Origin: an uncultured candidate division Zixibacteria bacterium
GTDB taxonomy: Bacteria > Zixibacteria > MSB-5A5 > RBG-16-43-9
Assembly: GCA_963713865.1 (NCBI GenBank)
Contig: OY970208.1
Span: 1,120,001 to 1,184,000 of the forward strand
Direction of reading: 5' to 3'
DNA: 64,000 nucleotides
Each line of letters starts with the position of its first letter. Within the stretch, counting starts at the first letter, position 1. The notes under the pieces are model-generated. The model made no database searches. It was not told the DNA's origin and worked only from the letters and a program-made list of their open reading frames with translations. Made by a program: the position numbers and the translations under genes. This document shows positions 15,027 through 64,000 of the stretch, one piece after another.

Positions 15027-15046
15027 GTAGCAAGGAGTTAGGGAAA

Positions 15047-15302: not shown

Positions 15303-16151
15303 ATGCATCTAATCTCCTCCCCTAAAAAAATGCAACAGCTTGCCCTTTCCCTCAAACGGAAAGGTAAGAAAATCTCTTTTGTGCCTACGATGGGGGCTTT
15401 GCATCAGGGGCATTTGAGTTTGGTTAAAAGGGCAAAAAAATTGGGGGATTTTGTGGTGGCAAGTGTTTTTATTAATCCTACACAGTTTGGGCCTAAAGAG
15501 GATTATAAAAAATATCCCAGGGATTTTAAAAAGGATAAAGAATTGCTCCAAAAAGCTGGATGTGACCTTGTTTTTGCTCCGAGGGTAAAGGATATATATC
15601 CAGAAGTATATTTAACTTATGTTAATGTCGATGAACTCTCGGAGAAATTGGAAGGTGCTTCCAGGCCCGGGCATTTTAAAGGGGTATGCACGATTGTGGC
15701 TAAGCTTTTCAATATAGTTATGCCGGATTATGCTATTTTCGGGCAGAAGGATGCTCAGCAGGCGATTATCATCAAAAAAATGACAGAGGATTTGAACTTT
15801 CCGGTCAGGATAATCGTATCTCCAACAATAAGAGAAAAAGATGGACTTGCCTGTAGTTCCAGAAATAGTTATCTTAACCCTGAAGAGAGGAAACAGGCTA
15901 AAGTGTTGTACCAGGCTCTAAAACTGGGAGAGAAGCTGATTAAAGCTGGTGAAAAAAATCCGAAAAAAATCGTAAATAAGATGAGGAAGCTGATTAATAA
16001 GGAAAAACTGGCAAGAATAGATTATATTTCCCTGACCGATAATGAAAAATTGGAATCGATAGAGATAATCAAAGGTGAAATTCTTCTCTCTTTAGCGGTG
16101 AAATTCGGCAAGACCAGATTAATAGATAATATGAAACTAAAAGCAAAATAA
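15303..16151 (+). CDS. panC: Pantoate--beta-alanine ligase
   Basis: [48 protein letters not shown]. Confidence 0.96.
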
Positions 16152-48632: not shown

Positions 48633-50615
48633 ATGAAAAATATTCAGAGAGAGATGAAAAAAATCGAGAGAAAAGATTGGTACCTCTGGATTCTGACTTC
48701 TATGGTCTTTTTAATCTTCACAGCTTTTATTCTACTTTTAATCTTCTATTCAGATCTTAGAGATTTTTACGAGGAGGAGCTTTCCAGCAGTACCTTTAAT
48801 GTCCTTTTCGTTGGATTTACCGGCATATCTCTACTCTTCTTAGCCTACATCCTTCTCAAAGAGAAGTCTATAAAAAAGCTGCGGGACGAATTGATAAAAG
48901 AGAAGATTTTAACTCAATCTTTAGAAGAGCACTTTCAAGAATTAAAAGCTTTGTTTGAGGTGAGCACCCTGGTAAATTCTGAGATCGAACTGACTTTAGC
49001 CCTGGATTTGATTTCCAAGACAGTCTTGAACTCCCTGCAAGCTGACAGGTCATCACTTTTACTTTTTAATAAAGAGAAAAACAAACTGGTCTGTGTCTCT
49101 GCTCATGGAAAATCAAGTGAAAAGATAAAATATATAGAACTGAATCCAGATGAAGGTGTAGCTGGATGGGTTATGACTCATAGGGAGCCGCTTCTTTTAG
49201 GAGAAGAGCTGCAAAGGGATAAGTTTAAAAACTATATTCCCAAAGAGGAGAAGATATTTTCCTCTTTAAGCGTCCCCTTGAAAGTGAAAAAAGAGATAAT
49301 CGGGGTATTAAATGTCAGCTCGATGACTGAAGAAAAGGAATTCAATGAGGTTGATTTGAAATTGATCTCGATATTTGCCCAGAATGCTGCAATTGCCATT
49401 GAAAAGGGAGAGTTATACTTAGAGTTAAAAGAACAGGCTGAGGCTTTGAAAAAGACCTTAGAGGATTTGAGAAACACCCAGAAACAGTTAGTTCAATCTG
49501 AAAAAATGAGAGCTTTAGGGGATCTAGCTGGAGGAGTAGCGCATGACTTCAATAATATATTAGGGAGTATAACAGGACGGGCTGAACTGCTTTTAAGACA
49601 GTCTAAAGAGGAAGAGTTTAAAAAAGGATTGATGCTGATTATATCGGTAGCAAATGACGGGGCAGAAATAATCAGAAGATTGCAGGAATACACTAAAGTC
49701 GGTAAAGAAGCAATTTTCGTTAAAGTAGACTTAAACAAGATAATCCAGCAGGTAGTGGAGATAACCCGGTTCAAGTGGAAAGACGAAGCTTTAGCTAAGG
49801 GGATTAAGATCAATATTGATATGGACTTAAAACAGATAGGATCTATCGCGGGTAATCCTTCGGAGTTGAGAGAAATATTGATTAACTTGATCCTGAATGC
49901 AATTGAAGCCCTGCCCAAGGGAGGGAATATCACCTTGAAAACCTGGATGGAAAATAGTGATGTCTTCACCTCTGTTAAAGATGATGGTATAGGTATGAAT
50001 GAGGAGGTTAAAGCTAATATCTTTGAACCTTTTTTTACCATGAAAGGTGCAACAGGAACCGGTTTAGGTTTATCTATAGTTTACGGGATAGTTTCCAAAC
50101 ATCAGGGTAGTATAACGGTTGACTCAGAACCGGGTAAAGGGACTAACTTCGTTCTTAAATTTCCGCTTGCTAGTCTGACCCAGAAGGAAGAAAAAGAGAT
50201 CTCGATTATTGATTTTCAACCGGCCAACATATTAGTCATCGATGATGAGAAAAATATACGGGATATGGTCTTAGAGATGCTAACCATACAAGGACATTCT
50301 GTTACCTTAGCTGTGGATGGGATACAAGGGATTGAATTTTTTAAAAGAAAAGATTACGATTTAGTTTTAACTGATCTAACTATGCCCGATATAACTGGCT
50401 GGGAGGTTTCAAAGGTAATCAAATCTATAAACACATCTGTCAAAGTGGCATTGATGACTGGCTGGGGAGTTCAGATAGAAAAGGAAGAAGCAAAGCTCAA
50501 AGGAATTGATTATCTGATCTCAAAACCTTTTAAAGAGAATCAATTGCTCTTTGTAGTCTCTGAAGCACTGAAAGCAAAGAAGAATTATTTACCCGAAAAA
50601 CCTGTTTCAGTTTGA
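48633..50615 (+). CDS. Hybrid sensor kinase (2 TM-GAF-HisKA-HATPase-REC)
   Basis: GVAHDFNN, NLILNA, DDGIG, FEPFFT, GTGLGL, C-terminal IDDE and TDLTMP. Confidence 0.92.
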   Translation: MKNIQREMKKIERKDWYLWILTSMVFLIFTAFILLLIFYSDLRDFYEEELSSSTFNVLFVGFTGISLLFLAYILLKEKSIKKLRDELIKEKILTQSLEEHFQELKALFEVSTLVNSEIELTLALDLISKTVLNSLQADRSSLLLFNKEKNKLVCVSAHGKSSEKIKYIELNPDEGVAGWVMTHREPLLLGEELQRDKFKNYIPKEEKIFSSLSVPLKVKKEIIGVLNVSSMTEEKEFNEVDLKLISIFAQNAAIAIEKGELYLELKEQAEALKKTLEDLRNTQKQLVQSEKMRALGDLAGGVAHDFNNILGSITGRAELLLRQSKEEEFKKGLMLIISVANDGAEIIRRLQEYTKVGKEAIFVKVDLNKIIQQVVEITRFKWKDEALAKGIKINIDMDLKQIGSIAGNPSELREILINLILNAIEALPKGGNITLKTWMENSDVFTSVKDDGIGMNEEVKANIFEPFFTMKGATGTGLGLSIVYGIVSKHQGSITVDSEPGKGTNFVLKFPLASLTQKEEKEISIIDFQPANILVIDDEKNIRDMVLEMLTIQGHSVTLAVDGIQGIEFFKRKDYDLVLTDLTMPDITGWEVSKVIKSINTSVKVALMTGWGVQIEKEEAKLKGIDYLISKPFKENQLLFVVSEALKAKKNYLPEKPVSV

Positions 50616-50625
50616 GACAATAGAT

Positions 50626-50672
50626 ATTCTATATTTTGAGTTTTATATTTCATTGAAACACAATATATTGTG
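50626..50672 (+). promoter_or_regulatory. Tandem NrdR boxes upstream of thyX-nrdJ
   Basis: ACACAATATATTGTG (50658-50672) matches acaCwAtATaTwGtg; a weaker ATTCTATATTTTGAG starts 32 bp upstream. Confidence 0.78.
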
Positions 50673-50701
50673 ATTTTTTTCAATAAAATAAAAATTTTTC
50701 C

Positions 50702-50729
50702 TTGACATCTTTTCTGATTTAGTTAAAAT
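50702..50729 (+). promoter_or_regulatory. Sigma70-type promoter candidate for thyX-nrdJ
   Basis: TTGACA-16 nt-TAAAAT. Confidence 0.5.
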
Positions 50730-50844
50730 AGATTATAGAAAGTTAGCAGAAGTTTTTGGTGGTATCCCACCAATTATTTATCCAATTTTTGCTCTTTAGA
50801 ATAAAATTCTTTAAAGGAAAATTATCGTCTAAAAAGGTATAAAT

Positions 50845-51501
50845 ATGAAAGTAGAATTGATGGCTATAACTCCTCAGGCTGAAGATGTGATTGAAAAAGC
50901 CTGTCGCACCTGTTATCTTTCCTTTCACCGTTATAATCCTCCTTCATCCACTGAAGAGTTGATAAAAAAAATTATCAGGAAAGGGCATCACTCGGTTTTA
51001 GAACATGCCTATGCCACCTTCAGGATCAAAGGTGGCTCAAGGGTATTTACCCATGAGATGGTCAGGCACCGGCTTATGTCCCCTTCCCAGGAGAGCCAGA
51101 GATATGTGGAATATGGTAAGACCAAAGAGTTTGAATTTGTAATTCCACCAACCATAGAGAAAACCTCTTTTAAAGATAGATTTAAAAAAGTAGCTTTAGA
51201 GCTTAAAGATTTTTATGAGGAGATGGTGAGAACCGAAATCCCAAAGGAAGATGCCAGATATATCCTTCCGAATGCTACTGTCTCCGAAATAGTGGTATCT
51301 GCCAATTTCCGGGAGTTGAGACATATCTTTGAAGTAAGATGCGTGGAAAGAGCACACTGGGAGATAAGAGAAATTTGTCTGGAAATGCTTAAGATAATGA
51401 AAAAGGAAGCTCCCATAGTTTTCTGGGACTTTAAAATAGATGAGAATAATAAAATAGCCCTATCCGTAGGAGAGGAGGAAATAAATGCAGGGGACAGTTG
51501 A
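50845..51501 (+). CDS. thyX: FAD-dependent thymidylate synthase
   Basis: GHHSVLEH, HEMVRHR, SQESQRYV, EDARYILP, NFREL, AHWEIR. Confidence 0.95.
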   Translation: MKVELMAITPQAEDVIEKACRTCYLSFHRYNPPSSTEELIKKIIRKGHHSVLEHAYATFRIKGGSRVFTHEMVRHRLMSPSQESQRYVEYGKTKEFEFVIPPTIEKTSFKDRFKKVALELKDFYEEMVRTEIPKEDARYILPNATVSEIVVSANFRELRHIFEVRCVERAHWEIREICLEMLKIMKKEAPIVFWDFKIDENNKIALSVGEEEINAGDS

Positions 51502-53686
51502 CCTTACCCCCAATTCTCTTAAAGTTTTAGAGAGGAGGTATCTGAAAAAAGATGATTCCGGGAAGGTAATGGAAACTCCAGAAGAACTATTCTGGAGGGT
51601 AGCTTTAACCATTGCTCAAACAGAAAAAATTTACGGGGCAAGTGATAAGAAAATTGAGCAGTTAGCCCAGGAATTCTATTCTTTTATGAGCCACTTAGAG
51701 TTCTTACCTAACTCACCCACTTTGATGAATGCCGGGAGAGCCTTAGGTCAGCTCTCAGCTTGTTTTGTTCTGCCGATTGAGGACAGTATGGAGTCGATCT
51801 TCGATGCGGTAAAAAATACAGCTTTGATTCACAAAAGTGGTGGAGGAACCGGTTTTTCCTTCTCCCGTCTCCGACCCAAGAACTCAGTTGTGGCATCTAC
51901 CTCTGGAGTTGCCTCAGGACCTATCTCTTTTATGAAGGTGATAAATGCGGCTACTGAGGCGGTCAAACAGGGAGGGACCAGAAGGGGTGCTAATATGGGA
52001 ATCCTGAAGGTGGACCATCCGGATATCTTTGAGTTTATCTCCTGTAAAGATGATTTAAAGGAGCTGAATAACTTCAATATCTCTGTGGCGGTGACTGAGG
52101 ATTTTATAGCAAAGGTGGAACAAGATGAAGAATATGAACTTTTCGATCCACGCACCAGAAAACCTTATGAGAAAGATGGTCAGGTGGTAAAATACAGAGC
52201 TAAAGAAGTATTTGACTTGATAGTGGAACATGCCTGGGGTAGTGGTGAACCAGGTGTCATCTTCTTAGACCGGGTAAATGAATCCAATCCTACGCCCAAG
52301 CTGGGTAAAATCGAATCAACCAACCCCTGTGGCGAGCAACCTCTTTTACCCTATGAGAGCTGTAATTTAGGCTCAATTAACCTCTCAAAGATGATAAAGC
52401 TCGAACAGGGGGAGATGGGTATAGATTGGGAAAAGTTAGAAAAGACTATCAGGCTTTCAGTCCATTTCTTAGATAATGTTATCGATGCCAATAAATATCC
52501 CCTTCCTCAGATTGAGAAGATGACCTTAGCTAACCGGAAGATCGGTTTGGGTGTTATGGGCTGGGCTGATATGCTCTTGCAGCTGGGGATCCCTTATGAT
52601 TCAGAAGAGGCTTTAGAGTTAGGGGAGAAGGTTATGGATTTTATCCTGAAAGAGTCTCACCAGTGCTCCTCAGAGTTAGCAGAGAATAGGGGAAATTTCT
52701 CTAATTGGGAGAAGAGTACTTTTTACGATAAAAAGATTCCGATGAGGAACGCAACTGTTACCACCATTGCTCCTGCAGGAACCATAAGTATCATCGCTGG
52801 CTGTTCCTCTGGAATTGAGCCCTTATATGCAGTCTCCTATATTCGAACGGTTATGGATCAAACCAGGATGGTCGAGGTAAATCCTTTCTTTGAAAAAAGG
52901 GCAAAAGAAGAAGGCTTTTATAGTGAAGATCTTATGGAAAAAATAGCTCAAAAAGGGTCAATTCAGAGCTTCCCGGAAATACCGGAGGAGATAAAAAGAA
53001 TGTTCGTAACCGCCTATGATGTTTCTCCTGAATGGCATGTGAGAATGCAGTCTGCTTTTCAGAAATATACTGATAATGCGGTTTCAAAGACCATAAATCT
53101 CCCTAATAAAGCTACCTTAGAAGAGGTAGGAGAAGCTTATATTTTAGCCTATAAATCCGGCTGTAAAGGGATTACAATTTATCGGGATGGAAGTAGAAAA
53201 GAGCAGGTCTTAACTACCAAAAGGGAAAACGAAGGTGAGGTAATAGTTCAAGACCGTCCAGAGACTCTTACTGGAATAACTGAAAAGATAAAAACTGGCT
53301 ACGGTAACCTTTATGTAACAATTAATAGTGTAAATAATAAACCGTTTGAGGTTTTCGCTCAAATAGGGAAGTCTGGTTATTCCACTATGGCAGACACTGA
53401 GGCTATTTGCAGACTGGTCTCCTTAGCATTACGCAGTGGAGTGGCAGTGGATAAGATCATAGAGCAATTGATAGGGATAGGTGGTTCTTCTCCAGTTTTC
53501 GGGAATGGTGAGCTTATAATGTCAATCCCGGATGCAATTGCTAAAGTTTTAAAGAAGCATTTTGGAAACGGGAAGCCAAATTCAGATAGAGATATAAACT
53601 TAGAGTTCTGTCCGGATTGTGGGGCTAAATTAGAATATAAAGAAGGATGTATCCTCTGTCAGGAATGTGGATTTTCAAAGTGCTAA
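51485..53686 (+). CDS. nrdJ: Class II (B12-dependent) ribonucleotide reductase with C-terminal TSCPD/zinc-ribbon region
   Basis: [53 protein letters not shown]-terminal CxxC...CxxCGFSKC; no nrdB nearby. Confidence 0.92.
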
Positions 53687-53720
53687 CTCTTCATAAAAAT
53701 TAAACCTTTTATCGTAATAG

Positions 53721-54335
53721 ATGGGATTTATCGCTCCAGCAGGTAGAACCTCTTCACTGACCTGGGAAGGGAAAGTCTTTCAGGTCCAGACTGAATTTGT
53801 AACCCGACCTAACCCCAAGGTAGTCTCCTCGATCATCTTAGATGGAAAGCTGATCCATAAAGTGGAGAAGATGTGGAAAGGGAAGTTGAATGAAGAGAAT
53901 CAGGAGAAATTAGAGCAATTTCTAAAAAAAGAACACGAATCAGTTACTCGGGCTTTGAAAAAGAACCCGTTCGATTTTCTATCCGGGAAGGAAGAGGTGT
54001 TTCAAAGTCAGATAGACAAGCTTTCTAATTTAAAAGAGATAGAAAACCCTTTCATTTTAAGGTATAATGGTTCTATTCTCTATACGGATAAAAAAGAGGA
54101 TAAGTTTCTGGATGGTGTTTCCAAGATCTTAGCCCAATCCTTAAGAATCGGGCAAGCCCTGACTGATTCTTCCAAATTAGGGGAGATAAAGTCAGGTGTT
54201 TTAGACTTCCCATCTCATAAGATCATCTGGGTTTATTATAACGAAAAGCTCTGGGCAGCCTTTCTGAAAAAAGGTTCACCTATAGACGATACCATTAAAA
54301 CGATGGGGAGTTTAATCCAGGAAAGCTATGAATAA
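53721..54335 (+). CDS. Hypothetical protein; N-terminal QVQTE-motif domain plus possible Roadblock/profilin-like C-terminal domain
   Basis: Intact ORF overlapping the next gene; fold guessed only from the residue pattern. Confidence 0.5.
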   Translation: MGFIAPAGRTSSLTWEGKVFQVQTEFVTRPNPKVVSSIILDGKLIHKVEKMWKGKLNEENQEKLEQFLKKEHESVTRALKKNPFDFLSGKEEVFQSQIDKLSNLKEIENPFILRYNGSILYTDKKEDKFLDGVSKILAQSLRIGQALTDSSKLGEIKSGVLDFPSHKIIWVYYNEKLWAAFLKKGSPIDDTIKTMGSLIQESYE

Positions 54336-55080
54336 AACCCTTCAGGAGATCAAATCGGTTCAGGGTGTAACCGGAGTCTTAGTTTTAGATAAGAAAGAAG
54401 GGATAACCTACCAGCTTACCCCAGTCTCTTTTCCCACAGAGGGGTTAAAGGAGTTAGGGGTTAGACTTTCAAGGCTGGTGAAGCTTCTCTCAACTGAGAT
54501 TAAATTGGAGCTGAAGTTTGAAAACGGAATCGCTTTCTTCTATAATTTAGAGCGAGGAGCAATATTGATATTCGGTCGTCCAGGGATTAATCTGCCGATC
54601 TTGAATCTGGTCTTAAAATCTGCCTTTTTAGCCATTGAAAGAAAACTGGCCAAAAGAGAAGAAGAGCCTCATACAGTTGAAGAGAAGAAAGGGTCTTTTC
54701 TATTGGATAAAATCTATTTAGAGCATCTCCTTTTAGCTTTAAACCAGATAGCTAAAATCTATAAACAGAAGCTGGGGACCTATCTGGTTACCCAGAATTT
54801 GAGAAGGTCTAAAGAGGAGCTTCTGCCTAAATTCAGTCTACTACAGAATTTCTTTGTGGATAATAATGGCATAGTTTCCATAATACGGGGAAAAGAGGAG
54901 GAGGATCTCCCTTTTGATAGCATCAAAGCGTTTGCCATCTGGATCAGTTTTTTCATACACTTATGTTCCAGCCATAGCCCGGAGCTTTTAACTGATATAA
55001 AAGAGCTTACTAAAGGGTTGGAGGAAAACTTAGAGCAGATGGGTTTTTATGAGAGCTATGAAAGGCTTAAAAAGAGTTAG
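54328..55080 (+). CDS. Hypothetical protein with N-terminal Roadblock/LC7 (MglB-like) domain
   Basis: LQEIKSVQGVTGVLVLDKKEG start resembles Roadblock domains. Confidence 0.55.
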   Translation: MNKTLQEIKSVQGVTGVLVLDKKEGITYQLTPVSFPTEGLKELGVRLSRLVKLLSTEIKLELKFENGIAFFYNLERGAILIFGRPGINLPILNLVLKSAFLAIERKLAKREEEPHTVEEKKGSFLLDKIYLEHLLLALNQIAKIYKQKLGTYLVTQNLRRSKEELLPKFSLLQNFFVDNNGIVSIIRGKEEEDLPFDSIKAFAIWISFFIHLCSSHSPELLTDIKELTKGLEENLEQMGFYESYERLKKS

Positions 55081-55089
55081 ATCTTATAG

Positions 55090-55123
55090 AAAACCCCTCC
55101 ACCCGAAGGGTGAAGGGGTTTTT
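55090..55123. terminator. Bidirectional intrinsic terminator
   Basis: AAAACCCCTCCACCCGAAGGGTGAAGGGGTTTTT; CUUCGG loop on the minus strand. Confidence 0.85.
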
Positions 55124-55124
55124 C

Positions 55125-55295
55125 GGAAAGGGATAAGGATTTGAAAAAACACTCTTGAAAGAATACAATAAAGGGTTTTTATAGCCACCCGGGATCTTTT
55201 GCTTTCGCTCTCCCGAAGGGTCGTCGCGTACGCGCAACCCCAGGGGACAACCTTAATCGCATCACTGTTAAAGGTTTTTCAAATGATCCCTTTCC
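55125..55295 (-). ncRNA. 171-nt structured RNA, 6S RNA-like candidate
   Basis: Ends pair (GGAAAGGGAU/AUCCCUUUCC; AUUUGAAAAAC/GUUUUUUCAAAU); internal bubble; apical stem with CUUCGG and GCGAAAGC tetraloops; upstream TTGCTT-16-TATTAT; terminator directly downstream. Confidence 0.6.
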
Positions 55296-55522
55296 AGCTT
55301 TATAATATAGATAAAAATAAAAAAAGCAAGTTATTTTTTAAGAAATTTTTATAAGATAGATGAAAAGCTCAAATTTTTGGGAAGAACCAATGGAGTGTAT
55401 CCGCCTGAGGCGGATAGCTTTACCAAAAACCTATTAAAAATAGGAAAATATATTCAGGCAAACCTGTCCTATAAACGGATCCGCAGGAAAGGTTTGCACT
55501 CCATTTTCCATATAGAGAAACT

Positions 55523-55891
55523 ATGATAGAAGCCTTAGGGATAGATTTAATCGAAGTAAAAAGGATAAAAAAAGCTTTAGAAAGATGGGGGAAAAGATTC
55601 TTAGAGAGGGTTTATACTCCTAAGGAGTTATCATACTGTTTAAAGAAAAGGTATCCGGAAAGCTCTCTGGCAGGCAGGTTTGCGGCAAAGGAGGCAGTGA
55701 TGAAAGCTTTAGGAACCGGGCTTTCCTCAGGCGTGAGCTGGAAGGATATAGAGATTGTGAATAATAAAAAAGGCAAGCCAGAGGTTTTTTTATGCGGGAA
55801 GACCAAGAGGATTTTAGGTAAAGGAAAGATTCTTATTAGTATCTCTCATACTAAAGAGGATGCTATTGCCCAGGCGATATTGATAAGGTAG
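55523..55891 (+). CDS. acpS: Holo-ACP synthase
   Basis: GIDLIE, LAGRFAAKEAVMKALGTG, GKP, ISISH. Confidence 0.95.
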   Translation: MIEALGIDLIEVKRIKKALERWGKRFLERVYTPKELSYCLKKRYPESSLAGRFAAKEAVMKALGTGLSSGVSWKDIEIVNNKKGKPEVFLCGKTKRILGKGKILISISHTKEDAIAQAILIR

Positions 55892-55900
55892 TTGTTTACG

Positions 55901-55971
55901 TTCCCTCTCCCTTTGAGGGAGAGGGACAGGGAGAGGGTTACCCTCCCTTTATCCCTCCCGTCAAGGGAGGG
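55901..55971. repeat. CCCTCTCCC...GGGAGAGGG palindromic repeats
   Basis: Two adjacent hairpins; same family as 7995, 20221 and 60664. Confidence 0.7.
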
Positions 55972-56017
55972 AAATAAAATCTGGAAATTAATAACAAACA
56001 TAAAAAAGGAAAAATAA

Positions 56018-56593
56018 ATGGAACAAAAGGAAATCATAGATATCTTTAAAAAGTCAAAAGCTCTTTTAAATGGTCATTTTCTATTGTCCTCAGGTCTGCA
56101 CAGCGATATCTATTTTGAAAAGTTTCAGGTGCTGCAGTATCCTGAATATGTGGAGCTTTTATGTGAAGAGTTAGCCAGGCTTTTCAAGAAGGAGAAGATT
56201 CAGGTGGTAGTGGGACCGACCACTGGCGGGATTATTATTGCTTATGAAGTGGCAAAGAGTTTAAAGGTCAGGTCGATTTTCGCTGAGATGGAAGAAGGAA
56301 AAAGGGTTTTCAAACGAGGGTTTGATCTGCAAGAGAATGAGAGGGTTTTGATTGTGGATGATATTCTGACAACCGGCAAATCAGTGCAGGAAGTTATAGA
56401 TTTGGTAAATAGATATAAAGCTAAAATAATAGGGATCGGAGTCCTTTTAGATAGAAGCGGAAGCAAAGTTCAATTTGCTTATCCTTTAAAACCTTTAGCC
56501 TCTGTTGTTGCCAAAACCTTCAAACCTGAAGAGTGCCCCCTGTGTAAAGAAGGGAAAGTTTTAGTTAAGCCGGGAAGCAGGAAGATGGTTTGA
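56018..56593 (+). CDS. pyrE: Orotate phosphoribosyltransferase
   Basis: GHFLLSSGLHS, VLIVDDILTTGKS, CPLCK, KPGSR. Confidence 0.92.
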   Translation: MEQKEIIDIFKKSKALLNGHFLLSSGLHSDIYFEKFQVLQYPEYVELLCEELARLFKKEKIQVVVGPTTGGIIIAYEVAKSLKVRSIFAEMEEGKRVFKRGFDLQENERVLIVDDILTTGKSVQEVIDLVNRYKAKIIGIGVLLDRSGSKVQFAYPLKPLASVVAKTFKPEECPLCKEGKVLVKPGSRKMV

Positions 56594-56607
56594 GGTTGTT
56601 TTTATCA

Positions 56608-56740
56608 GGAGTGTAAACCTTTAAGTTTACCAAATAGTGTGGTAACCCCGCCTTGTCTTCAAGGCGGGGTTTGTTTGAATAGTAGCCGCAACCTTTAGTT
56701 CGCGAAAAAAGAAAAACGCAGACTTAAGTCTGCGGCTACC
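56608..56740. repeat. REP-like hairpin cluster
   Basis: GTAAACctttaaGTTTAC; ACCCCGCCTTG...CAAGGCGGGGT; GTAGCCGC...CGCAGACTTAAGTCTGCGGCTAC. Confidence 0.78.
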
Positions 56741-56746
56741 GGTTGA

Positions 56747-57199
56747 TTATTTCAGGCTGAACTTAACTTTGTACTTCACCCAGACTGCTACTGGGTTACC
56801 TGCACTGAGAGCTGGTTTGTATTCATACTGCAGAGCAGATTTTGTTGCTGGCTCGCAGAAGATATACGGCTTATCACTCGAATCTCTCAGGCACTCCACA
56901 TCCCTGACTTTTCCCTGTCTGTCGATTAGCGCCTTAATCCAGACCTCTCCTTCTATCCCTGCTTTTTTAGCTGAGTCAGGATAGACTGGCTGGACAGTTT
57001 TTATCGGTTGTGGTGCCTCATCATAGGTAACAAATTCATCCGGGGAAGGAAGGGAGTCCTCACTCAGGGCTTGAGCTTTTCCTGCAGAGGTGGTAGTATC
57101 TTCTCCAGCCATCTTCTCTTTGTTCGCACTCTGTTTCTGGCAATAAAATGCTGTGGACAGTAGAAAAAGAGCGATAAGAAGAAGTATTACTTTTTTCAT
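56747..57199 (-). CDS. TonB C-terminal domain protein
   Basis: Signal/anchor, PVYPDSAKKAGIEGEV, YKPA...GNPVAVW..VKFSL. Confidence 0.85.
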   Translation of the reverse strand: MKKVILLLIALFLLSTAFYCQKQSANKEKMAGEDTTTSAGKAQALSEDSLPSPDEFVTYDEAPQPIKTVQPVYPDSAKKAGIEGEVWIKALIDRQGKVRDVECLRDSSDKPYIFCEPATKSALQYEYKPALSAGNPVAVWVKYKVKFSLK

Positions 57200-57284
57200 C
57201 TTGATCCTCCTTTCGGTTAAGATTTGTTTTTGTTTGCGTGTAAAGATATTAACATAGACTAAAATTTGTTGCTACCTGCTTTTA

Positions 57285-58418
57285 TTAAATTTTCATTTCA
57301 TAAATCCTGTATTTCTTATAAAGCTTAGCCCCGAATGTTTCCAGGGCGTGATTGATTAGAAAGTTGTCCTCTAAATTCCAGGACATCTCTGCCCATTTAT
57401 ACCCTTTCTTCACCCCATTCGTATAGGTGTCTATATAAAATACGGTATCGATCCCCCTCTTCTGATATTTATGAATTACGCCCATAGTTAAAAGTCTAAG
57501 CCCATCGATTACCTTATGAAATTTGGTGAACCAGAGAAGCTTGAAAATTCCAAAAGGGAAAAGCCTGCCATTTAGCTTAATCAACAATTGATTTATATCC
57601 GGCAAAGCCATTGAAAAACCAGCCGGCTCTCCATCTACCTCAGCAATAAAGACTAAATCCGGGTCAACTATCTTTTTGAAATCTTTGGCTAAATGCTCAA
57701 ACTCCTCATCCGTCATAGGGATTGCTCCCCAGTTTTCGCTCCAGGCTAAATTATAGATCTTTTTTATCTTTTCTATCTCACCTTCAAAATCATTTAAATT
57801 CAGTTTACGAACAACTATATTCTTCTTTTTTCTCACCAGCTCAGCTATCCTTTTGAACCTTTCAGGGGGCCGAATACTTTTTTCCATGTAAAAAGCATAT
57901 AGGTCTTTGGCTTTTACCATACCGTATTTTTCCATAAAATCCAGGTAATATTTAGGATTGTAGGTCATCATAAAAACCGGTGGAAAATCAAACCCTTCTA
58001 TGAGGAAGCCGAGCTCGTCATTAACCGAGAAATTCATCGGTCCACGCATAAGCACCATACCTCTGGATTTAAGCCAATCTTTAACTTTATCCAGCAATTT
58101 TTTTGCCACTGCGAAATCCTCGATTGACTCAAAGAAGCCGAAAAATCCAGCTTTTTCCTGATGGGTCTCTATATGTTTGAAGTTCACCAGACCGGCGATT
58201 CGGCCGACTATCTTTTTATCTTTTTCTGCTAAGAATAGAATTACATCAGCATGTTTATAAAATGGATTTTTTTCCGGATTGAAAAAGGCTTTTCTTTCGG
58301 AGATCAAAGGAGGGACCCAGTTTTTATCATATTTATAGATTTTCCAGGGAAATTGGATGAAATCGAGTAAATCCTTTTTGTTTTCCACTACTCTTATTTT
58401 AAGCTCTTCTTTTTCCAT
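57285..58418 (-). CDS. GNAT-fold (YghO-like) N-acyltransferase
   Basis: WVPPL, VGRIAG, FFGFFES, YNPKYY, NWGAIP, YQKRG, EMSWNLEDN. Confidence 0.8.
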   Translation of the reverse strand: MEKEELKIRVVENKKDLLDFIQFPWKIYKYDKNWVPPLISERKAFFNPEKNPFYKHADVILFLAEKDKKIVGRIAGLVNFKHIETHQEKAGFFGFFESIEDFAVAKKLLDKVKDWLKSRGMVLMRGPMNFSVNDELGFLIEGFDFPPVFMMTYNPKYYLDFMEKYGMVKAKDLYAFYMEKSIRPPERFKRIAELVRKKKNIVVRKLNLNDFEGEIEKIKKIYNLAWSENWGAIPMTDEEFEHLAKDFKKIVDPDLVFIAEVDGEPAGFSMALPDINQLLIKLNGRLFPFGIFKLLWFTKFHKVIDGLRLLTMGVIHKYQKRGIDTVFYIDTYTNGVKKGYKWAEMSWNLEDNFLINHALETFGAKLYKKYRIYEMKI

Positions 58419-58702
58419 CGAATAAGCTACCTCTCTTTTATCTGAAGACTCGCTTTTGGTAAGTTTATTTCCTGAACTAAGTCAAAAAAGAAATTAACAC
58501 TTGAGTTTGGGTAAGGCAATAGTTTTTTTAGTATTAAGATTTTTAGTGGTATAACAATATATGCTATATAGGATTGTTGCTTAATTCTTTTTTGGAGATA
58601 TCTTATTTAAGGATAGGGTTTGTCCCTGTCCTAATCCTAATAAGGACAACAATATGAGTTGTCTCTGAATTAAATTCATCATCAACTAAAGAAATTTATA
58701 AT

Positions 58703-58826
58703 AAAAGAAGGGAGCCTGCTTAGAAGACTATCTGGCGGGGGCACAAGTCTATGTCTAATTCTTCACTTAGCGGAATTACCTGTGCGTAGTCCTCGAAAGA
58801 GCAGCGCTCCCAAAAAAAGTTATCCT
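58703..58826 (-). ncRNA. Predicted sigma54-dependent structured small RNA
   Basis: Nested helices 58710-58811 (GGGAGC/GCUCCC, GAGGACUA/UAGUCUUC, GCACAGGU/ACUUGUGC, AAUUC/GAAUU). G-U pairs form only on the minus strand; followed by UUCUUUU. Confidence 0.55.
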
Positions 58827-58837
58827 CAAAAAATATA

Positions 58838-58853
58838 AGCAACTTTTATGCCA
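58838..58853 (-). promoter_or_regulatory. Sigma54 (-24/-12) promoter
   Basis: TGGCATAAAAGTTGCT matches TGGCAY-N5-TTGCW with exact spacing. Confidence 0.7.
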
Positions 58854-58900
58854 GTTGTATATAAAAAGGAGACAATTGTAACCTTATGTTTAACATATAC

Positions 58901-58930
58901 TTGACTTTAACTTTCTTTCTTTGCTATAAC
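58901..58930 (+). promoter_or_regulatory. Sigma70-type promoter candidate facing the portal gene
   Basis: TTGACT-18 nt-TATAAC with extended -10 TGn. Confidence 0.4.
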
Positions 58931-58945
58931 ATGTTAATTTAAAAA

Positions 58946-59038
58946 TGTTCAATTTTTAGACACTTTAGATCTTTACAGATTATATCCTTAATTCTATCTT
59001 AAAGTTACATAATAGTTTTTTTGTCAATTATATTGACA
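58946..59038. promoter_or_regulatory. Two TGT-N11-ACA palindromes, enhancer-binding-protein-like sites
   Basis: TGTTCAATTTTTAGACA (58946-58962) and TGTCAATTATATTGACA (59022-59038), about 95-185 bp upstream of the sigma54 element. Confidence 0.5.
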
Positions 59039-59215
59039 CTAAAACAGCTTAAGTGTTTTTGTCAGAGGCAGATTAACCTCGCCTGGGCGATTTTGAATAG
59101 GGCTACACTATAAAATAGAAGAATAAATAATATTATACCTGACAAACTTACCTTTAACAAATTCAAAAAATCTACTTTTATGATGGAAAAGATGAAAAAT
59201 AACCAGATTTAGAAG

Positions 59216-60532
59216 ATGAAAATCAAAAAATTTTTCAAAAATTTAATAATAAAAGGAAGCCTTCCATCTAAAAAGGAAAACAACAAATCTTTTCCCCTTC
59301 AGGAAAAGGTTCTCAGCTCATACAGACATCTACCATCAACACCACTTTCTAAAGGTTCATTTAGTTCTGAGGATAATGATATTATTCTTCCATCCCGGCA
59401 ACTTTACGATCGTACCTTTAAAATCAAGCTTTACAGATTATTAAGAGATAATATTCCTGCAATAAATTCAGCTATCTGGACCTGGACCAGGCTCTCCTCT
59501 GCTCCCTCTTCTTACAAGCTAAAAGGGAGCGAGGACCAGGATATTCTAAATCAGGCTTCAAAAATAATCTCGAACTTAGACCGAAGAGTCTACCAGCACT
59601 CCTTCCACAAATTTGGTGGAATTGAAGCTTTGCTTACTCAATTCTTCTACTCCCTTTTCACGGATGGGGCGGTATGTGGAGAATTAGTTTTAAACCCTTC
59701 GCAAAATCGTTTAGATAAGTTCTATTTTATCGATCCCTCTACCATAAGGTTCAAGTTATCCAGAACAAACTATGAGCTTTATCAAGAAATTGATGGGGAA
59801 ATGATTAGACTGAATCAGAATTCAACTTACTATTATGGTTTGGACCCTGATCCGGAAGACCCTTGTGGGAGAAGCATTTTATCCTCTATCCCTTTTGTTA
59901 CCAGGATTGAACAGAGATTGCTTTCGGATATGCAGAAAAGTATGCATAATGCCGGGTATCATCGTCTGCATGTAAAGCTAAAACCACCAGAAAGGTTGCC
60001 TTCTGAATCGAATGAGGCTTATATCGGTAGAGCTAATCGTTATTTTGAGGATACTGTGGAGATGATGAGAAAAATTTCGGTGGAAGATAATCCGATAACC
60101 TGGAACGATGTGCAGATAGATTATATCGGACCCCAGGGGGGTTATGCTGCCACCACTTCCTGGTATATTAATCATAAAGCCTTAATTGAGGAGATCTGTG
60201 CAGGTGTTCACTTAGATCCGTTTATCTTAGGGTATTCTTATGGAGCGCCCTATAGCTGGGCACAGATAAAATATGAGATGATTCAAAGGAACATAATCTC
60301 CATCCAGGCTTCCGCTAAACGCTTTATGGAATGGATACACAATTTAGAGCTGGCGCTTCAAGGGTTAGATTTAGAATACGAGCATCATTTTGATAACCGA
60401 AAGACTTTTGGTCTATTAGAACAAAGACAGGCAGAGAAAATCGCTCTGGAGAATATTATTTTGAAAAAGAATACCGGATTGATAGATGAAGAAGAGGCGA
60501 AAAGGGAAATAAAAATAACTGATGACAAATGA
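59216..60532 (+). CDS. Phage portal-like protein
   Basis: 438 aa; portal-like progression LYRLLRD..AINSAI, DGAVCGELV, IDPSTIRF, PCGRSILSS, C-terminal GLIDEEEAKREI; directly upstream of a terminase. Confidence 0.65.
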   Translation: MKIKKFFKNLIIKGSLPSKKENNKSFPLQEKVLSSYRHLPSTPLSKGSFSSEDNDIILPSRQLYDRTFKIKLYRLLRDNIPAINSAIWTWTRLSSAPSSYKLKGSEDQDILNQASKIISNLDRRVYQHSFHKFGGIEALLTQFFYSLFTDGAVCGELVLNPSQNRLDKFYFIDPSTIRFKLSRTNYELYQEIDGEMIRLNQNSTYYYGLDPDPEDPCGRSILSSIPFVTRIEQRLLSDMQKSMHNAGYHRLHVKLKPPERLPSESNEAYIGRANRYFEDTVEMMRKISVEDNPITWNDVQIDYIGPQGGYAATTSWYINHKALIEEICAGVHLDPFILGYSYGAPYSWAQIKYEMIQRNIISIQASAKRFMEWIHNLELALQGLDLEYEHHFDNRKTFGLLEQRQAEKIALENIILKKNTGLIDEEEAKREIKITDDK

Positions 60533-60540
60533 CAGATAAA

Positions 60541-60702
60541 TAAAGGTTCAAAGGTTCAAAAACTCAATGGTTTAAAGGGAAATGAAAAAAGAAGATTAAA
60601 ACATAGAAGTTAAAATGTTTCAGTGCTTATCAGTTCCTATGAGGTAGAAATACCTCGGGGATTTATCCCCTCTCCTTTTTAAGGAGAGGGTCGGAGTGAG
60701 GT
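60541..60702. repeat. Host-type intergenic repeats between portal and terminase
   Basis: AAAGGTTC tandem as at 1501-1540; CCCTCTCCTT..AAGGAGAGGG hairpin as at 55901. Confidence 0.65.
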
Positions 60703-60815
60703 TATTTTTTCGCTCACATCTTTTTTTCATCCTTCGGCATCCGTCGTTAGTAGTTATTTTTTTAATCTGTCATCTTCTATTTTGCTTTCGTTATTTTCTA
60801 TTTGTAGGTGATTTA

Positions 60816-62147
60816 TTGGATAAACAATATCTCTGGAGAAAAGCGCTTAAAGACCCGCTCTATTTTGCCCGTGAATTCTTAGAGATTGAGCCTCATCCCG
60901 GTCAGGCCCTCTGGCTAAAGAGCTCAATCAAACCAGAAAACGCACTGCACACCGGGAATCGCTGGGGGAAAAGCCTTTGCCAGGCGATAAAAATCGTTCA
61001 TCGCTCGATTTTTAAAATCCGCAAGACTAGATATAATACCACAGAAAAATATACGGCAGTAAATGTATCTGTAACCCTTGACCAGGCAAAGATAATCTTC
61101 GATAAAGCAGTCGGTTTTTTAAAAGGGAAAAAGATATTAGAGCCTTTGGTTCAGGATATAAGGTCAACTCCGTTTCCACATATCGTCTTCTCCAATTCTG
61201 CGGTTTTCTGGGCACGCTCCACTCAGAGAAAAGGGGAATATCTTTTAGGATATGATTATGACTATTGTAATTTCGATGAAGTTGCCTTTGAGCCTCATCC
61301 TGAATATGTGGTTAATAATGTGATTATGATGAGACTTTGTGATCGAGCCGGGATGTTAGATTATACTTCTACCCCTAAGGGTAAAAACTGGTTCTATCGC
61401 AAATGCTTAGAGTTAAAATCTCATCTAGAATATGGATATGTCCAGGGGGGCGACACCCGGGAAAATTCTCATATCTCCACTGAGTATATTCAAAGGAAAT
61501 TGAAAACACTGTCAAATTCCAAGGTCGAGCAGAATATAATGGGAAATTTTATAGATGACCCGGATCAGGTTATAGAGGAAAAATATATCAGTCAGGCAAC
61601 CTCAAATTCTTCTGGACTTTCTTCTCCTAAAGAAGGACATCGCTATTCAACTGGATGGGATTTAGCGCGAAAAAGAAACTATACCGTAGGGATAACTTTA
61701 GACATTTCCAGCAAGCCATACCAGCTGGTCTCCCTGGAGAGATTTCAAAGGGGTTGGAAAGAGACGATTGAGTCGATCAGGAAAAGAAAGAAGGATTATG
61801 GGGGAGAGGTTTTGATAGATTCAACTGGTTTAGGGGATGTGATCTTAGAGGAGTTAAAAGATATAAATGTTAGAGGGTTTAATTTCGGGGAAAAAGGGGG
61901 AAAGGTTAAATCTGAGCTTATTGCCAATTTGCAAAAGGAGCATTCATTAAGTAATATTGCTTATCCTTATGTTGAGTTTATAGAAGAAGACGGTTCCCTG
62001 TGGTCTTTACAGGATGAATTAAGGGATTTTACTTGGGATACTAAGGAAAACTGTGATGCGGTGATGGCACTAGCGTTAGCCCTGTGGAATGTGAGAACCC
62101 CGGAACAGCTTCCCCTGATTCTGGTGCCGAGGGTGGAAAAAATCTAA
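60816..62147 (+). CDS. Phage terminase large subunit-like protein
   Basis: PHPGQ; Walker A GNRWGKS; Walker B NFDEVAF; STPKGKNWFY; nuclease motifs GWDLA, IDSTGLGD, DAVMALALA. Start reassigned to TTG 60816 after TAGGTGA. Confidence 0.85.
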   Translation: MDKQYLWRKALKDPLYFAREFLEIEPHPGQALWLKSSIKPENALHTGNRWGKSLCQAIKIVHRSIFKIRKTRYNTTEKYTAVNVSVTLDQAKIIFDKAVGFLKGKKILEPLVQDIRSTPFPHIVFSNSAVFWARSTQRKGEYLLGYDYDYCNFDEVAFEPHPEYVVNNVIMMRLCDRAGMLDYTSTPKGKNWFYRKCLELKSHLEYGYVQGGDTRENSHISTEYIQRKLKTLSNSKVEQNIMGNFIDDPDQVIEEKYISQATSNSSGLSSPKEGHRYSTGWDLARKRNYTVGITLDISSKPYQLVSLERFQRGWKETIESIRKRKKDYGGEVLIDSTGLGDVILEELKDINVRGFNFGEKGGKVKSELIANLQKEHSLSNIAYPYVEFIEEDGSLWSLQDELRDFTWDTKENCDAVMALALALWNVRTPEQLPLILVPRVEKI

Positions 62148-62188
62148 ATTATAGAGGCAAGGGTGTATGGCATTACATCCCTATTTAT

Positions 62189-62833
62189 CTAAAAAGGTAG
62201 AATCTCTTTTATCTTTGGCAGAAAAGTCTTGAGAAAATCTTCAAGCACAAGCTGAGCTTCTTTTTCCGAGATCTGGTTTAGAGACAGGTTTATGCGGACA
62301 AGGACGGCATCAGTAGGTGCTCTTTTTAACGAATTTAAAACCAGATCTAGTTTCAATCCTAACTCGCTGGTTATTATCCTGCTTCTGGTTTGAAACCAGT
62401 AATACATAACTTCTCTGGACAGCTTATCGGAGATCAAAAGTTTATTTACCTTAAGGTCTGAGCCTGTATCTGTTTTGATCAGAATCTTCCTTCGACTCAT
62501 AATCTTCCAGCCGCTACCGGGCAGGCAGTTCTTGGGGGAGTGAATCTGTGAACCATATTTCTGGCTCTTAAAATAGGCGATGAAAAGCCAGAGTTCTTTT
62601 CCTTCACTACTGGTATATTTCCTGAAAGCATAAGTATCAGCTTTGAGGACCTGGTTGGTCTCATCAGAAAAGAAATATTCCTGACCGTTCCAGTCTGCGT
62701 ACTGAAGAGGGAGAGAGGAAAAGAGAGGGAATCTCTTCGATTCGACTCGAGAGTAGCGCAGGATATTTATCAGTATCCCGGTTAGAACAAAAAGGATCAG
62801 GACTATCCAGAATTCTTTTTTTTTAAAGCCCAT
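62189..62833 (-). CDS. epsI: EpsI family (exosortase-associated) protein
   Basis: N-terminal TM helix, LFIAYFKSQ, IHSPKNCLPGSGW, YYWFQ, DAVLVR. Confidence 0.85.
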   Translation of the reverse strand: MGFKKKEFWIVLILFVLTGILINILRYSRVESKRFPLFSSLPLQYADWNGQEYFFSDETNQVLKADTYAFRKYTSSEGKELWLFIAYFKSQKYGSQIHSPKNCLPGSGWKIMSRRKILIKTDTGSDLKVNKLLISDKLSREVMYYWFQTRSRIITSELGLKLDLVLNSLKRAPTDAVLVRINLSLNQISEKEAQLVLEDFLKTFLPKIKEILPF

Positions 62834-62882
62834 AACTTTAACCTCAGAGGAAATATAAAAAAGGATAGGGAAAAGTCAACCC

Positions 62883-64000
62883 TTAGAGTATAAATTCAGA
62901 AAGGTCTATCTTATATTTCTGGGGATCCAGGCACCTCACTGGCATCTTAGATTCCTCCATTTCCGCAGGATATTCTGAGCTTTGGCCCAAATCCAGAGTC
63001 TCAGGTGTTTTTTTAATCCCATTCTGGTCTGCGATAATTTTTAGTTTGGGTAGAGTGAGGTTCTCCGGATTATTTTTTATCACTATCCCTATCTCCCCGG
63101 TATTTAAAAGGACCAGGGAGCCCACCGGATAAACCCCCAAGATATTTATAAAAAGTTTCAACAAGCAGGAATCATAAACTTTATCCCGGGCATAAAACAT
63201 CTTCCTCAAAGCTTCATCCGGCAGATAAGGGGTTTTAATATATACCCGGCCCGAGGTCATAGCATCATAAGCATCGGCAATGCTTACTATACGGGAGAAC
63301 AGGTTTAACTCTCTTTTGTTTTTAACCTTAGGATAACCGGAAAGGTCGAGGTTCAGATGGTGTTCAAAACTAACCAGCATAGCCCTCATTGAAAAGGGAT
63401 CGAACTTTAAACTGATTAAAAGGTTTTTTACTCCCCAGATCGGGTGTTTTTTCATCCTCGTCCATTCGGATTCATTGAATTCAGAAGGTTTGTTTAAAAG
63501 CTCCAAGGGTAAATTTGTTTTTCCAATATCGTGAAACAGGGCGGCAAGGCCTAATTCGCTTAACTTCTTTTTGTTTAAACCCAATCTCAATCCCAGGATT
63601 AAGGAGAGGATACAGACGTTGGTAGAATGGAGATAAGTATATTCATCGTAGTTTCTTAAAGAAGAAAGCTCTAAGAAGATCTCCTCGTTCAGCAGGAGCT
63701 GATCTACTAAAGATTGAACTACCCTTTTCACTTTAACCAGATTTATCTCTTTACCTGCCTGAGCTCTCTGGCTGATCTCTCGCACCATAGAGAAAGCTTT
63801 GGTGAAAGTTTTTTTCGCAACCTTTCGCTGGTCTAAAGAGATCTGGTCAGCTTCTAAAACGGAAGACTCTTTTTCCTTTTCCAGGTGAAGGTTCTGGAGA
63901 TTTTCCTCAAAGATTTTTTTCTCCAAACTTTCAAATGGCTCCATATCCTCAGTATCTATTTGTGCTAGAATATAGATCAAGCTTTGCAAATCCTTCTGGG
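62883..64000 (-). CDS. HD-GYP phosphodiesterase, 5' end beyond the window
   Basis: YTYLHSTNV, FHDIGK, EHH, SGYP, IADAYDAMTS; the frame stays open to the window edge. Confidence 0.9.
   Translation of the reverse strand, partial: QKDLQSLIYILAQIDTEDMEPFESLEKKIFEENLQNLHLEKEKESSVLEADQISLDQRKVAKKTFTKAFSMVREISQRAQAGKEINLVKVKRVVQSLVDQLLLNEEIFLELSSLRNYDEYTYLHSTNVCILSLILGLRLGLNKKKLSELGLAALFHDIGKTNLPLELLNKPSEFNESEWTRMKKHPIWGVKNLLISLKFDPFSMRAMLVSFEHHLNLDLSGYPKVKNKRELNLFSRIVSIADAYDAMTSGRVYIKTPYLPDEALRKMFYARDKVYDSCLLKLFINILGVYPVGSLVLLNTGEIGIVIKNNPENLTLPKLKIIADQNGIKKTPETLDLGQSSEYPAEMEESKMPVRCLDPQKYKIDLSEFIL

Follow-up and report, generated by a model that had tools for sequence, protein, structure and literature searches.

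A phage portal and terminase gene pair of Zixibacteria probably belongs to a dispersed, domesticated gene transfer agent-like system

Introduction

Why would an uncultured bacterium keep a phage portal gene and a large terminase (TerL) gene side by side, with ordinary host genes on either hand? The question is raised by a 64,000-nucleotide stretch of DNA, hereafter the window (G000:C1:1120001-1184000), from the closed, single-contig, 2.72-Mb genome of a member of the Zixibacteria (G000, the genome under study; G-numbers denote genomes, L-numbers the loci or contigs compared and f-numbers families of the phylum). Near the end of the window, a portal-like gene (59216-60532, plus strand, 438 aa from an ATG start) is followed on the same strand by a TerL gene (60816-62147, 443 aa). 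An earlier note, made from the letters of this DNA alone, had described the pair as orphans and proposed a packaging motor retained by the host, perhaps part of a dispersed gene transfer agent (GTA) or a stand-alone DNA translocase, rather than a decaying prophage. We conclude, with a probability of roughly 0.7, that the pair is the packaging motor of a vertically inherited, independently domesticated, GTA-like tailed-phage particle system of Zixibacteria.

Results

The window encodes a portal and a large terminase

Both open reading frames (ORFs) are intact and co-directional in the ORF list, as had been described. The product of 59216-60532 matched two PHROG families, phrog_3753 ('portal protein', E = 5.7e-36) and phrog_30703 (E = 5.2e-17); neither Pfam nor a search of PDB sequences with the portal profile returned a match. 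An AlphaFold2 model built from 42 sequences (mean predicted local distance difference test score (pLDDT) = 75.2, predicted template modelling score (pTM) = 0.64) was compared with the PDB using Foldseek. There were 126 matches at E <= 0.001, the best at 2.5e-12, and the top matches listed were all portal or neck complexes, with template modelling (TM) scores of 0.41-0.47; among these entries are those of Pakpunavirus P7-1, phage 812, T4, G20c, HK97 and lambda. As a monomer model, the product of this ORF is thus predicted to have the tailed-phage portal fold, and the portal-like identity assigned to it earlier stands on both the PHROG families and the match of the model to solved portals.

The neighboring ORF, 60816-62147, matched phrog_2 ('terminase large subunit', E = 2.8e-27), and a profile of 11 TerL sequences matched two PDB chains named 'Phage terminase large subunit', the nuclease chain 5tge (7.5e-14) and the ATPase chain 4znj (5.6e-8). 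Pfam Terminase_6N was recovered in the TerL of relative L169 (1.5e-9). Numbered on the 443-aa form, the Walker A motif TGNRWGKS (46-53), the Walker B pair D154-E155, the coupling motif S185-T186-P187-x-G189 and the nuclease aspartates D282, D335, D341 and D414 were invariant in all 11 aligned sequences. By homology and motif, the ORF is assigned as a large terminase with an N-terminal ATPase and a C-terminal RNase-H-like nuclease.

The completeness of both motif sets had been recognized before, but the start codon needed correction from GTG 60696 to TTG 60816. The open frame does extend back to the GTG (483 aa). However, relatives align to this longer frame from residue 40-45 onward only, its first ~40 residues being a run of hydrophobic codons, and the TTG is preceded by AGGTGA at 60806-60811; the TTG is therefore the likely start, more so than the GTG. 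With TerL beginning at 60816, the spacer that separates it from the portal gene (60533-60815) is 283 bp long.

The partner genes lie at two further loci of the chromosome

The pair is not an orphan: its partners lie elsewhere in G000. Searches with tblastn located capsid and tail-like genes 73 kb and 107 kb downstream, in the kind of genome-wide search for dispersed genes that the earlier note had suggested, and its description of the pair as orphaned has to be dropped. We refer to the portal and TerL genes of the window as locus A. Locus B (G000:1255332-1257623) holds three genes, including a protease-like gene, and locus C (G000:1289279-1304379) holds the decoration-like, capsid and downstream module genes. 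As read by PHROG and Pfam, locus C encodes a decoration-like protein, a major head protein, a ~470-aa protein (split over two frames in G000), a 278-aa protein and a glucosaminidase, along with further proteins of 114, 89, 684, 472 and 120 aa. The major capsid gene itself (G000:1290089-1291210) matched phrog_3922 ('major head protein', E = 1.4e-59), with Pfam Phage_capsid_4 detected in a relative (2.7e-7); the capsid profile found no match among PDB sequences. The decoration-like protein matched phrog_4588 in G000 (2.5e-6) and phrog_122 ('head decoration') in L169 (9.3e-4).

Together, the three loci span ~125 kb. The 99 ORFs between and just beyond them include those for MurQ, LL-DAP aminotransferase, pyruvate phosphate dikinase, Lon, pyruvate kinase, GlmM, PhoU-PstBAC, PhoR/PhoB, GlmS, PrfA, PrmC and TldD/PmbA, with UvrC just past locus C, and none of the 99 gave a phage or integrase match at E <= 1e-10. 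Housekeeping genes separate the three loci; the set cannot move as a unit.

Gene order was reconstructed from offsets to the TerL start at 79 loci of the genome collection and 55 family-labelled loci. The portal gene lies at -1.3 kb and TerL at 0 kb, followed by a prohead-protease-like gene that we call 'B416' (+1.8 kb), a gene for a ~100-aa protein (+3.6 kb), the decoration-like gene (+4.4 kb), the capsid gene (+4.9 kb), the gene for the ~470-aa beta-propeller protein (+6.0 kb), that for a ~270-aa tail-tube-like protein (+7.4 kb), and genes for proteins of ~125 aa (+8.3 kb) and ~95 aa (+8.6 kb). A protein of variable size comes next, then a second ~470-aa protein (+10 kb) and a ~112-aa protein (+11.6 kb). 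Downstream of TerL, this order recurs at 35 of the 55 family-labelled loci. The capsid gene fell inside the fetched stretch at the same number of these loci and at 37 of the 79 collection loci, many of the others being short or at contig edges. In the closed genome of relative L169, 15 ORFs with overlapping or nearly abutting ends occupy 13.2 kb (2600-15990), and portal and TerL are 4 bp apart, compared with 283 bp in G000. Judged from these arrangements, the ancestral state is a single co-directional operon of ~13 kb with portal and TerL at its head.

The relatives' operon is not a full prophage. No integrase, replication or lysogeny gene was recognized among the genes scanned in it, so that what relatives carry is a 13-kb set of structural genes.

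Break-up of the operon is progressive. In other genera of G000's family, f1, the locus-B genes are inverted and lie 5-9 kb upstream of the portal gene, with the capsid gene 16 kb downstream; in the genus of G000 the module genes are farther apart. Independent splits were found in f19, f20 and parts of f10, f7 and f2. In all five split genomes examined, the capsid gene is intact, at 16 kb, 102 kb or 1.41 Mb from TerL, or on another contig.

The gene set descends with the phylum and is under purifying selection

A TerL profile found matches, mostly one per genome, in 264 of 285 genomes of the phylum, covering 124 of 130 genera and 18 of 20 families and including 190 of the 198 genomes of at least 90% completeness. 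The two families lacking a match are f3 (0/1, a genome 65% complete) and f8 (0/2). Reading frames are intact in the great majority of the matching genomes, with few stops listed. The portal was found in 37 of 41 relatives, and the capsid profile matched 68 of 71 high-quality genomes of the class (16 of its 17 families), a distribution that is not the patchy one which the earlier note had named as a sign against its proposal. The cluster sits inside long chromosomal contigs and closed chromosomes (e.g. G000, G029, G109, G186 and G226). Our picture of the distribution outside the phylum rests on IMG/VR and a pattern-based scan, in which 241 of 292 matched stretches were confirmed and the best 80 all carried Zixibacteria-type or mislabelled titles.

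TerL identity to G000 follows taxonomic rank, falling from 91-93% within the genus to 80-84% within the family, 66-71% within the order and 44-58% within the class; portal and capsid identity drop likewise. In a maximum-likelihood TerL tree of 56 hand-chosen rows (two to nine per family, with f3, f8, f12 and f18 left out), 16 of 16 families were monophyletic, and the 15 changes of family label are the minimum, compared with a mean of 42.8 after shuffling; none of 200 shuffles came as low. The tree also unites the three families of G000's order. When eight IMG/VR TerLs were added as an outgroup (quick search, LG+G4), the 56 Zixibacteria rows formed one clade (SH-aLRT = 98). The flanks of the pair are syntenic within the genus and differ between families. 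Taken together, these data indicate that the structural gene set was inherited vertically, probably from an ancestor close to the base of the phylum.

None of the nearest homologues lies in a complete prophage. The best TerL match in IMG/VR, at 52% identity, is L121 (IMGVR_UViG_3300027896_005586), an 11-kb fragment with the chromosomal gene order. The other IMG/VR viral contigs have just TerL in common with the cluster, at 30-39% identity, except that L129 additionally carries a portal gene (32%), placed after TerL. Against cultured or deposited phages, the best identities are 33% for the capsid and 25% for the portal.

Ratios of nonsynonymous to synonymous divergence (dN/dS) were estimated by the Nei-Gojobori method (NG86) for G000 against two genus-mates. 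The portal gave 0.18 and 0.16 and TerL 0.067 and 0.076, and 13 flanking host genes compared in the same way ranged from 0.06 to 0.26. The capsid gene had the lowest value of the module set (0.039). Synonymous divergence was alike for module and host genes. Relaxed selection, another outcome that would have spoken for a remnant, is thus not seen in the portal-TerL pair (0.07-0.18, within the host range). At 0.37-0.46, the GC content of the module genes scatters about the mean of all ORFs in the genome (0.408, sd 0.03).

Other proteins of the module

'B416' has a conserved N-terminal domain of ~200 aa in which H82, S135 (within CSIGF) and a CxxC...CxH cluster are invariant in 36 homologues. Its nearest Atlas cluster was Peptidase_S78_2 (score 0.85, taken as a lead only), Pfam Peptidase_S78 was matched by 1 of the 36 members at E = 0.074, and hhalign to HK97 gp4 was weak (E = 0.025, probability 2%), placing H82 and S135 on gp4 residues 65 and 114, which we take to be the catalytic His and Ser. 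We read 'B416' as a prohead protease, somewhat more probably than not. The C-terminal part of the protein is variable: an ATP-dependent DNA ligase domain is present in 6 of the 36 homologues, and LigD_N, a 3'-phosphoesterase domain, is found in addition in 3 of them; the G000 copy has neither. Such ligase fusions occur in f2 and f4 (L026:4808-7141, minus strand; L033:4979-7294, minus strand; L034:13983-16187, plus strand). A ligase on a phage head protein is unusual.

The ~470-aa protein encoded after the capsid gene is predicted to be a sialidase/BNR-like beta-propeller (TM = 0.59-0.72 to BNR_2 Atlas clusters). The model of the 278-aa protein (pLDDT = 89.6) comprises an N-terminal helix, a beta-rich domain and three C-terminal helices. 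With Foldseek, the beta domain matched part of 6xgr, the YSD1 major tail protein (4.6e-4, TM ~0.27); the protein also gave a partial, below-cut-off match to NCBIfam tail_tube_6XGR (2.1e-9) and partial matches to BFVD viral models named 'major tail protein' (2.4e-9) and 'tail protein/RBP'. A clear tail-tube fold was rejected, the Foldseek matches covering part of the domain only, as was a gp6-like adaptor, guessed at from the N-terminal helix, which found no match when aligned with HK97 gp6 by hhalign. The 684-aa protein had no match among PDB sequences and the 472-aa protein had chance-level hits only. No sheath or baseplate gene was recognized in the module.

Locus C also contains genes that are not part of the ancestral order. 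Two host genes for SBBP beta-propeller-repeat/dockerin proteins are inserted on the opposite strand (G000:1291421-1292677 and 1295443-1296987), and a glucosaminidase-type peptidoglycan hydrolase gene (G000:1303345-1303887), which was not found beside the cluster in relatives, lies between the last two module genes.

Flanks, spacer and upstream region of the pair

The neighbors of locus A are ordinary host genes, as had been reported: TonB_C and GNAT-domain genes on the other strand upstream, and a DUF3485/EpsI gene and an HD-GYP gene downstream. There is no tRNA gene within window positions 50000-64000, and the flanks contain no convincing direct or attachment site (att)-like repeat, only four chance-like pairs of 14-31 nt. 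Phage_integrase matches in G000 occur solely at 1125215, 1580377/1580759 and 753928, the nearest being 54 kb upstream of the portal gene. In sum, no integrase, att site, lysogeny or replication module of the kind that marks a temperate prophage adjoins the structural genes. The distant match belongs to two adjoining ORFs of ~300 aa on the minus strand of the window (4212-6054), the second of which (5155-6054) matched Phage_integrase at E = 2.7e-44 and is probably a Xer-type recombinase.

The spacer between portal and TerL contains two kinds of repeat, both of which had been said to recur in other spacers. This holds for the hairpin, CCCTCTCC-N7-GGAGAGGG at 60668-60690: the pattern CCCTCTCC-N3-12-GGAGAGGG occurs 33 times in the genome, twice in the window (55903 and 60668), and each 8-mer of the hairpin is found ~119 times, against ~18 expected. 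It was not confirmed for the tandem, two copies of AAGGTTCA at 60543-60558, which is real but whose exact 16-mer is unique in the genome. Because of the 33 genomic copies and a REP-associated tyrosine transposase (RAYT) homologue encoded at G000:1278386-1278988, the hairpins are probably host REP-type repeats, resembling a REP/RAYT system. In another genome, G034, three ORFs lie between portal and TerL (L028:9184-10629, minus strand); one has an IS1595-type transposase zinc ribbon, which indicates that an insertion split the pair there. A gene with a SocA/Panacea antitoxin domain is directly downstream of TerL in the same contig.

Upstream of the portal gene, the ~800-bp gap described before is indeed present: 797 bp (58419-59215) separate it from the GNAT gene, which is divergently oriented. 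On the GNAT side, ~400 bp of this gap hardly differ among the three genomes of the genus. This part contains a structured RNA-like element of ~100 nt (58710-58811, plus strand). The element was found in nine of nine f1 genomes, ~340-460 nt ahead of the portal gene, also where another gene lies upstream. Its consensus forms a branched fold of 31 pairs, five of them with compensatory changes, and its minimum free energy is -38.8 kcal/mol (z = -2.5). An Rfam scan of 58300-60900 at E <= 1, the element included, returned no match. With a covariance model, the element was single-copy in G000 and gave no hit above noise in 46 loci of relatives from other families (49 sources searched), so that neither loci B and C nor the phylum at large share it as a signal. 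By its position, the element appears tied to the packaging genes; our conjecture is that a leader or a small RNA arose here once portal and TerL had become a separate unit. Promoter-like consensus sites within 58400-62300 were rarer than in shuffled sequence (6 against a mean of 11.1) and terminator-like sites numbered 6 against a mean of 3.7; neither count was used as evidence.

Discussion

What, then, would a phage packaging motor do in this chromosome? In the mechanism we propose, the portal would form the ring through which DNA enters the capsid, and TerL, uniting ATPase and nuclease, would pump and cut that DNA. The whole structural gene set would have been resident in Zixibacteria from near the root of the phylum, at first as one ~13-kb operon, which in G000 would have been broken into loci A, B and C. 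Its products would assemble under host control into DNA-filled particles that, like GTAs, would be loaded with host DNA and carry it to other cells. For the genes themselves, homology and fold are established, as are their distribution, dispersal, purifying selection and divergence in step with the host.

GTAs, according to the abstract of PMC9662315, descend from caudoviricetes, pack no more than a portion of their own genome into particles, are switched on in subpopulations of cells and pass vertically from one host generation to the next. In the closed chromosome of G000, portal, TerL, capsid and decoration-like genes are resident structural genes of caudoviricete derivation, and vertical transmission is seen in the monophyletic families, the rank-wise drop in identity and the synteny within the genus. 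As for self-packaging, the G000 set extends over ~125 kb in three loci; the 13-kb operon of relatives could in principle fit into one head.

Several observations weigh against this proposal. Particle function is deduced from conservation of the genes; no particle, packaged DNA or transfer has been observed. None of the 23 sequencing runs listed is an RNA run covering the locus (20 of them contain part of the stretch as DNA). PHROG, Pfam and NCBIfam revealed no recognizable small terminase, tape measure, baseplate, holin or regulator in the module, and six or seven of its conserved genes matched no family. In statistical terms the protease assignment is weak, and the tail assignments are partial-domain matches at a TM of ~0.27. 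Synonymous divergence is saturated beyond the genus, so that the selection estimates come from two close pairs, which as kin are not independent. Both f8 genomes, G037 and G239, lack TerL, and G037 (95% complete) lacks portal and capsid too, while the complete, 2.1-Mb genome G067 (f13) keeps the capsid gene and has no TerL match. These absences are possibly losses.

A further difficulty is the beta-propeller gene, which is interrupted near residue 210 in G000 (1293439-1294864) and near residue 147, by a TAA, in G001 (C41:11617-13033). It is possible that the particle is defective in the genus of G000, either through recent damage or in appearance, through assembly error. The gene is intact in G003, G004 and G007, which represent three other genera of the family, and the interrupted fragments have a dN/dS of 0.12-0.22. 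Host genes of G000 are split as well, namely threonine dehydrogenase (tdh; 139 + 227 aa, G000:1247926-1248973) and a SufS-like gene (203 + 177 aa, G000:1199938-1201073), which suggests frameshift errors in the single-contig assembly; the break in the propeller gene may thus be such an error.

The alternative that survives best is a domesticated particle selected for another role, such as a PBSX-like killer or defective phage, DNA release into biofilm or a decoy for phages, with DNA packaging as a by-product. The evidence from conservation would fit it equally. The peptidoglycan hydrolase inside locus C (Glucosaminidase, 1.6e-15; NF052335, 1.8e-33) and a sialidase-like propeller suited to surface attack would also agree with such a role, and PBSX itself is described as GTA-like, packaging chromosomal fragments of 13.4 kb, in the excerpted text of PMC12946183. 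Nevertheless, the catalytic motifs of TerL are all kept and the gene is under strong constraint, indicating that filling with DNA matters, whereas a pure killer such as a tailocin needs no DNA filling; moreover, relatives showed no such hydrolase gene next to the cluster. We regard this explanation as unlikely.

A decaying, functionless prophage remnant, kept because deletion is slow, would account for the lack of integrase, lysogeny and replication genes, the fragmentation of the cluster in G000, the interrupted propeller gene in G000 and G001 and the invasion of the spacer by REP-like hairpins. It is very improbable nonetheless: frames are intact in the great majority of the 264 of 285 genomes with a match, dN/dS of 0.04-0.18 equals that of host genes, and the monophyly of 16 families points to phylum-deep retention, for which neutral remnants do not last long enough. 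The preference of the earlier note for a host-retained motor within a dispersed GTA over such a remnant is upheld; the contrary signs it had named (patchy distribution, nearest homologues in complete prophages, relaxed selection, a full prophage at the locus in relatives and a missing portal fold) did not appear.

Just as slim is the chance that the genes belong to a temperate phage or satellite, still active and co-speciating with Zixibacteria, or to viral contigs misbinned into metagenome-assembled genomes. Capsid-forming satellites have a similar gene content, the operon is compact and phage-like in order, and the IMG/VR contig L121, with 52% TerL identity, bears the same cluster. That contig, however, is an 11-kb fragment with chromosomal gene order, and the cluster lies in long chromosomal contigs and closed chromosomes, mostly in single copy, with flanks that are syntenic in the genus and differ between families, genes up to 1.41 Mb apart and no integrase near the loci in G000.

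The slightest chance attaches to portal and TerL having been repurposed alone as a DNA translocase unrelated to capsids: although no other module gene was found within ~16 kb downstream in G000's genus, f19 and f20, and although in f1 the pair has its own upstream region with the conserved RNA-like element, the partner genes are retained, the capsid gene being intact in 5 of 5 split genomes examined and lowest in dN/dS of the set in G000, and TerL, portal and capsid co-occur across the class.

Returning to the GTA-like particle system, a more specific version of it can be put forward tentatively, at a little short of even odds: a GTA of the Zixibacteria's own, fixed near the root of the phylum, with a portal-first operon without recognizable small terminase, a head protein fused to ligase and 3'-phosphoesterase in some families, repeated break-up into unlinked yet constrained loci and a family-specific structured RNA. 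The ligase-fused head protein would possibly be delivered with the DNA and help its joining in the recipient. An agent of this kind would be among the most broadly conserved viriforms known.

If the GTA-like system is real, an uncultured phylum of sediment and soil would hold a particle gene set passed on vertically throughout the phylum, and phage domestication would gain an independent case. Fractions of virus-like particles could be screened for Zixibacteria DNA with its sequence as a marker, and a way of exchanging genes in anoxic sediments would be suggested. Annotation is affected too: the cluster can be misread as viral by prophage and virus callers, L121 in IMG/VR being such a fragment. 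With every part still constrained, the repeated splitting of the operon is a natural experiment in how control by the host takes the place of operon linkage. A full-text literature search (supplementary files lay outside it) found no paper describing such an element in Zixibacteria.

Among known systems, the head module of the HK97 lineage shares the portal fold, the TerL ATPase and nuclease, the capsid family and, by a weak alignment, a protease-like domain with aligned His and Ser. It differs in gene order, which is TerS-TerL-portal in HK97 and TerL-portal in viral contig L129, compared with portal-TerL in Zixibacteria, where in addition the protease-like protein has long, variable C-terminal parts and the set is chromosomal and immobile. 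PBSX of Bacillus subtilis is a contiguous element of ~28 kb, limited to close relatives, with a contractile tail and killing activity. Like the Zixibacteria set, known from its genes alone, it consists of chromosomally fixed genes for a phage-like particle, and PBSX packages fragments of host DNA according to the excerpt of PMC12946183; unlike PBSX, the Zixibacteria module has no recognized sheath or baseplate gene.

GTAs have been characterized in Rhodobacterales, Desulfovibrio, Brachyspira, Bartonella, Caulobacter and Methanococcus voltae, and the same excerpt counts few known systems, most of them alphaproteobacterial (PMC12946183). Those of the RcGTA type (Rhodogtaviriformidae) resemble the Zixibacteria system in their small head-tail cluster (here ~13 kb), vertical inheritance, purifying selection, breadth within a large clade and distribution of genes over more than one site in the chromosome, and integration or replication genes are recognized in neither. 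In contrast, none of 15 Zixibacteria module proteins matched a GTA-named NCBIfam model (E <= 0.01), nor did any in Pfam, in what is a comparison of profile names rather than a direct alignment with RcGTA; the Zixibacteria order places portal before TerL, no small terminase was recognized, and the system, known from genes alone, is phylum-wide in a different, uncultured phylum.

The FpGTA of Faecalibacterium, as presented in the excerpted part of PMC12946183, has a main operon of ~10.5 kb and a second operon ~125 kb away in a closed genome, and its packaged DNA was sequenced, giving fragments of 8.4-8.9 kb. It is thus backed by packaged-DNA data and, in that text, reported for one genus, whereas the Zixibacteria set is far wider, known from its genes and likened to FpGTA by architecture, not sequence. 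Lying outside Alphaproteobacteria and split into separate operons, FpGTA as described there is the closest architectural parallel to loci A-C and their span of ~125 kb (PMC12946183).

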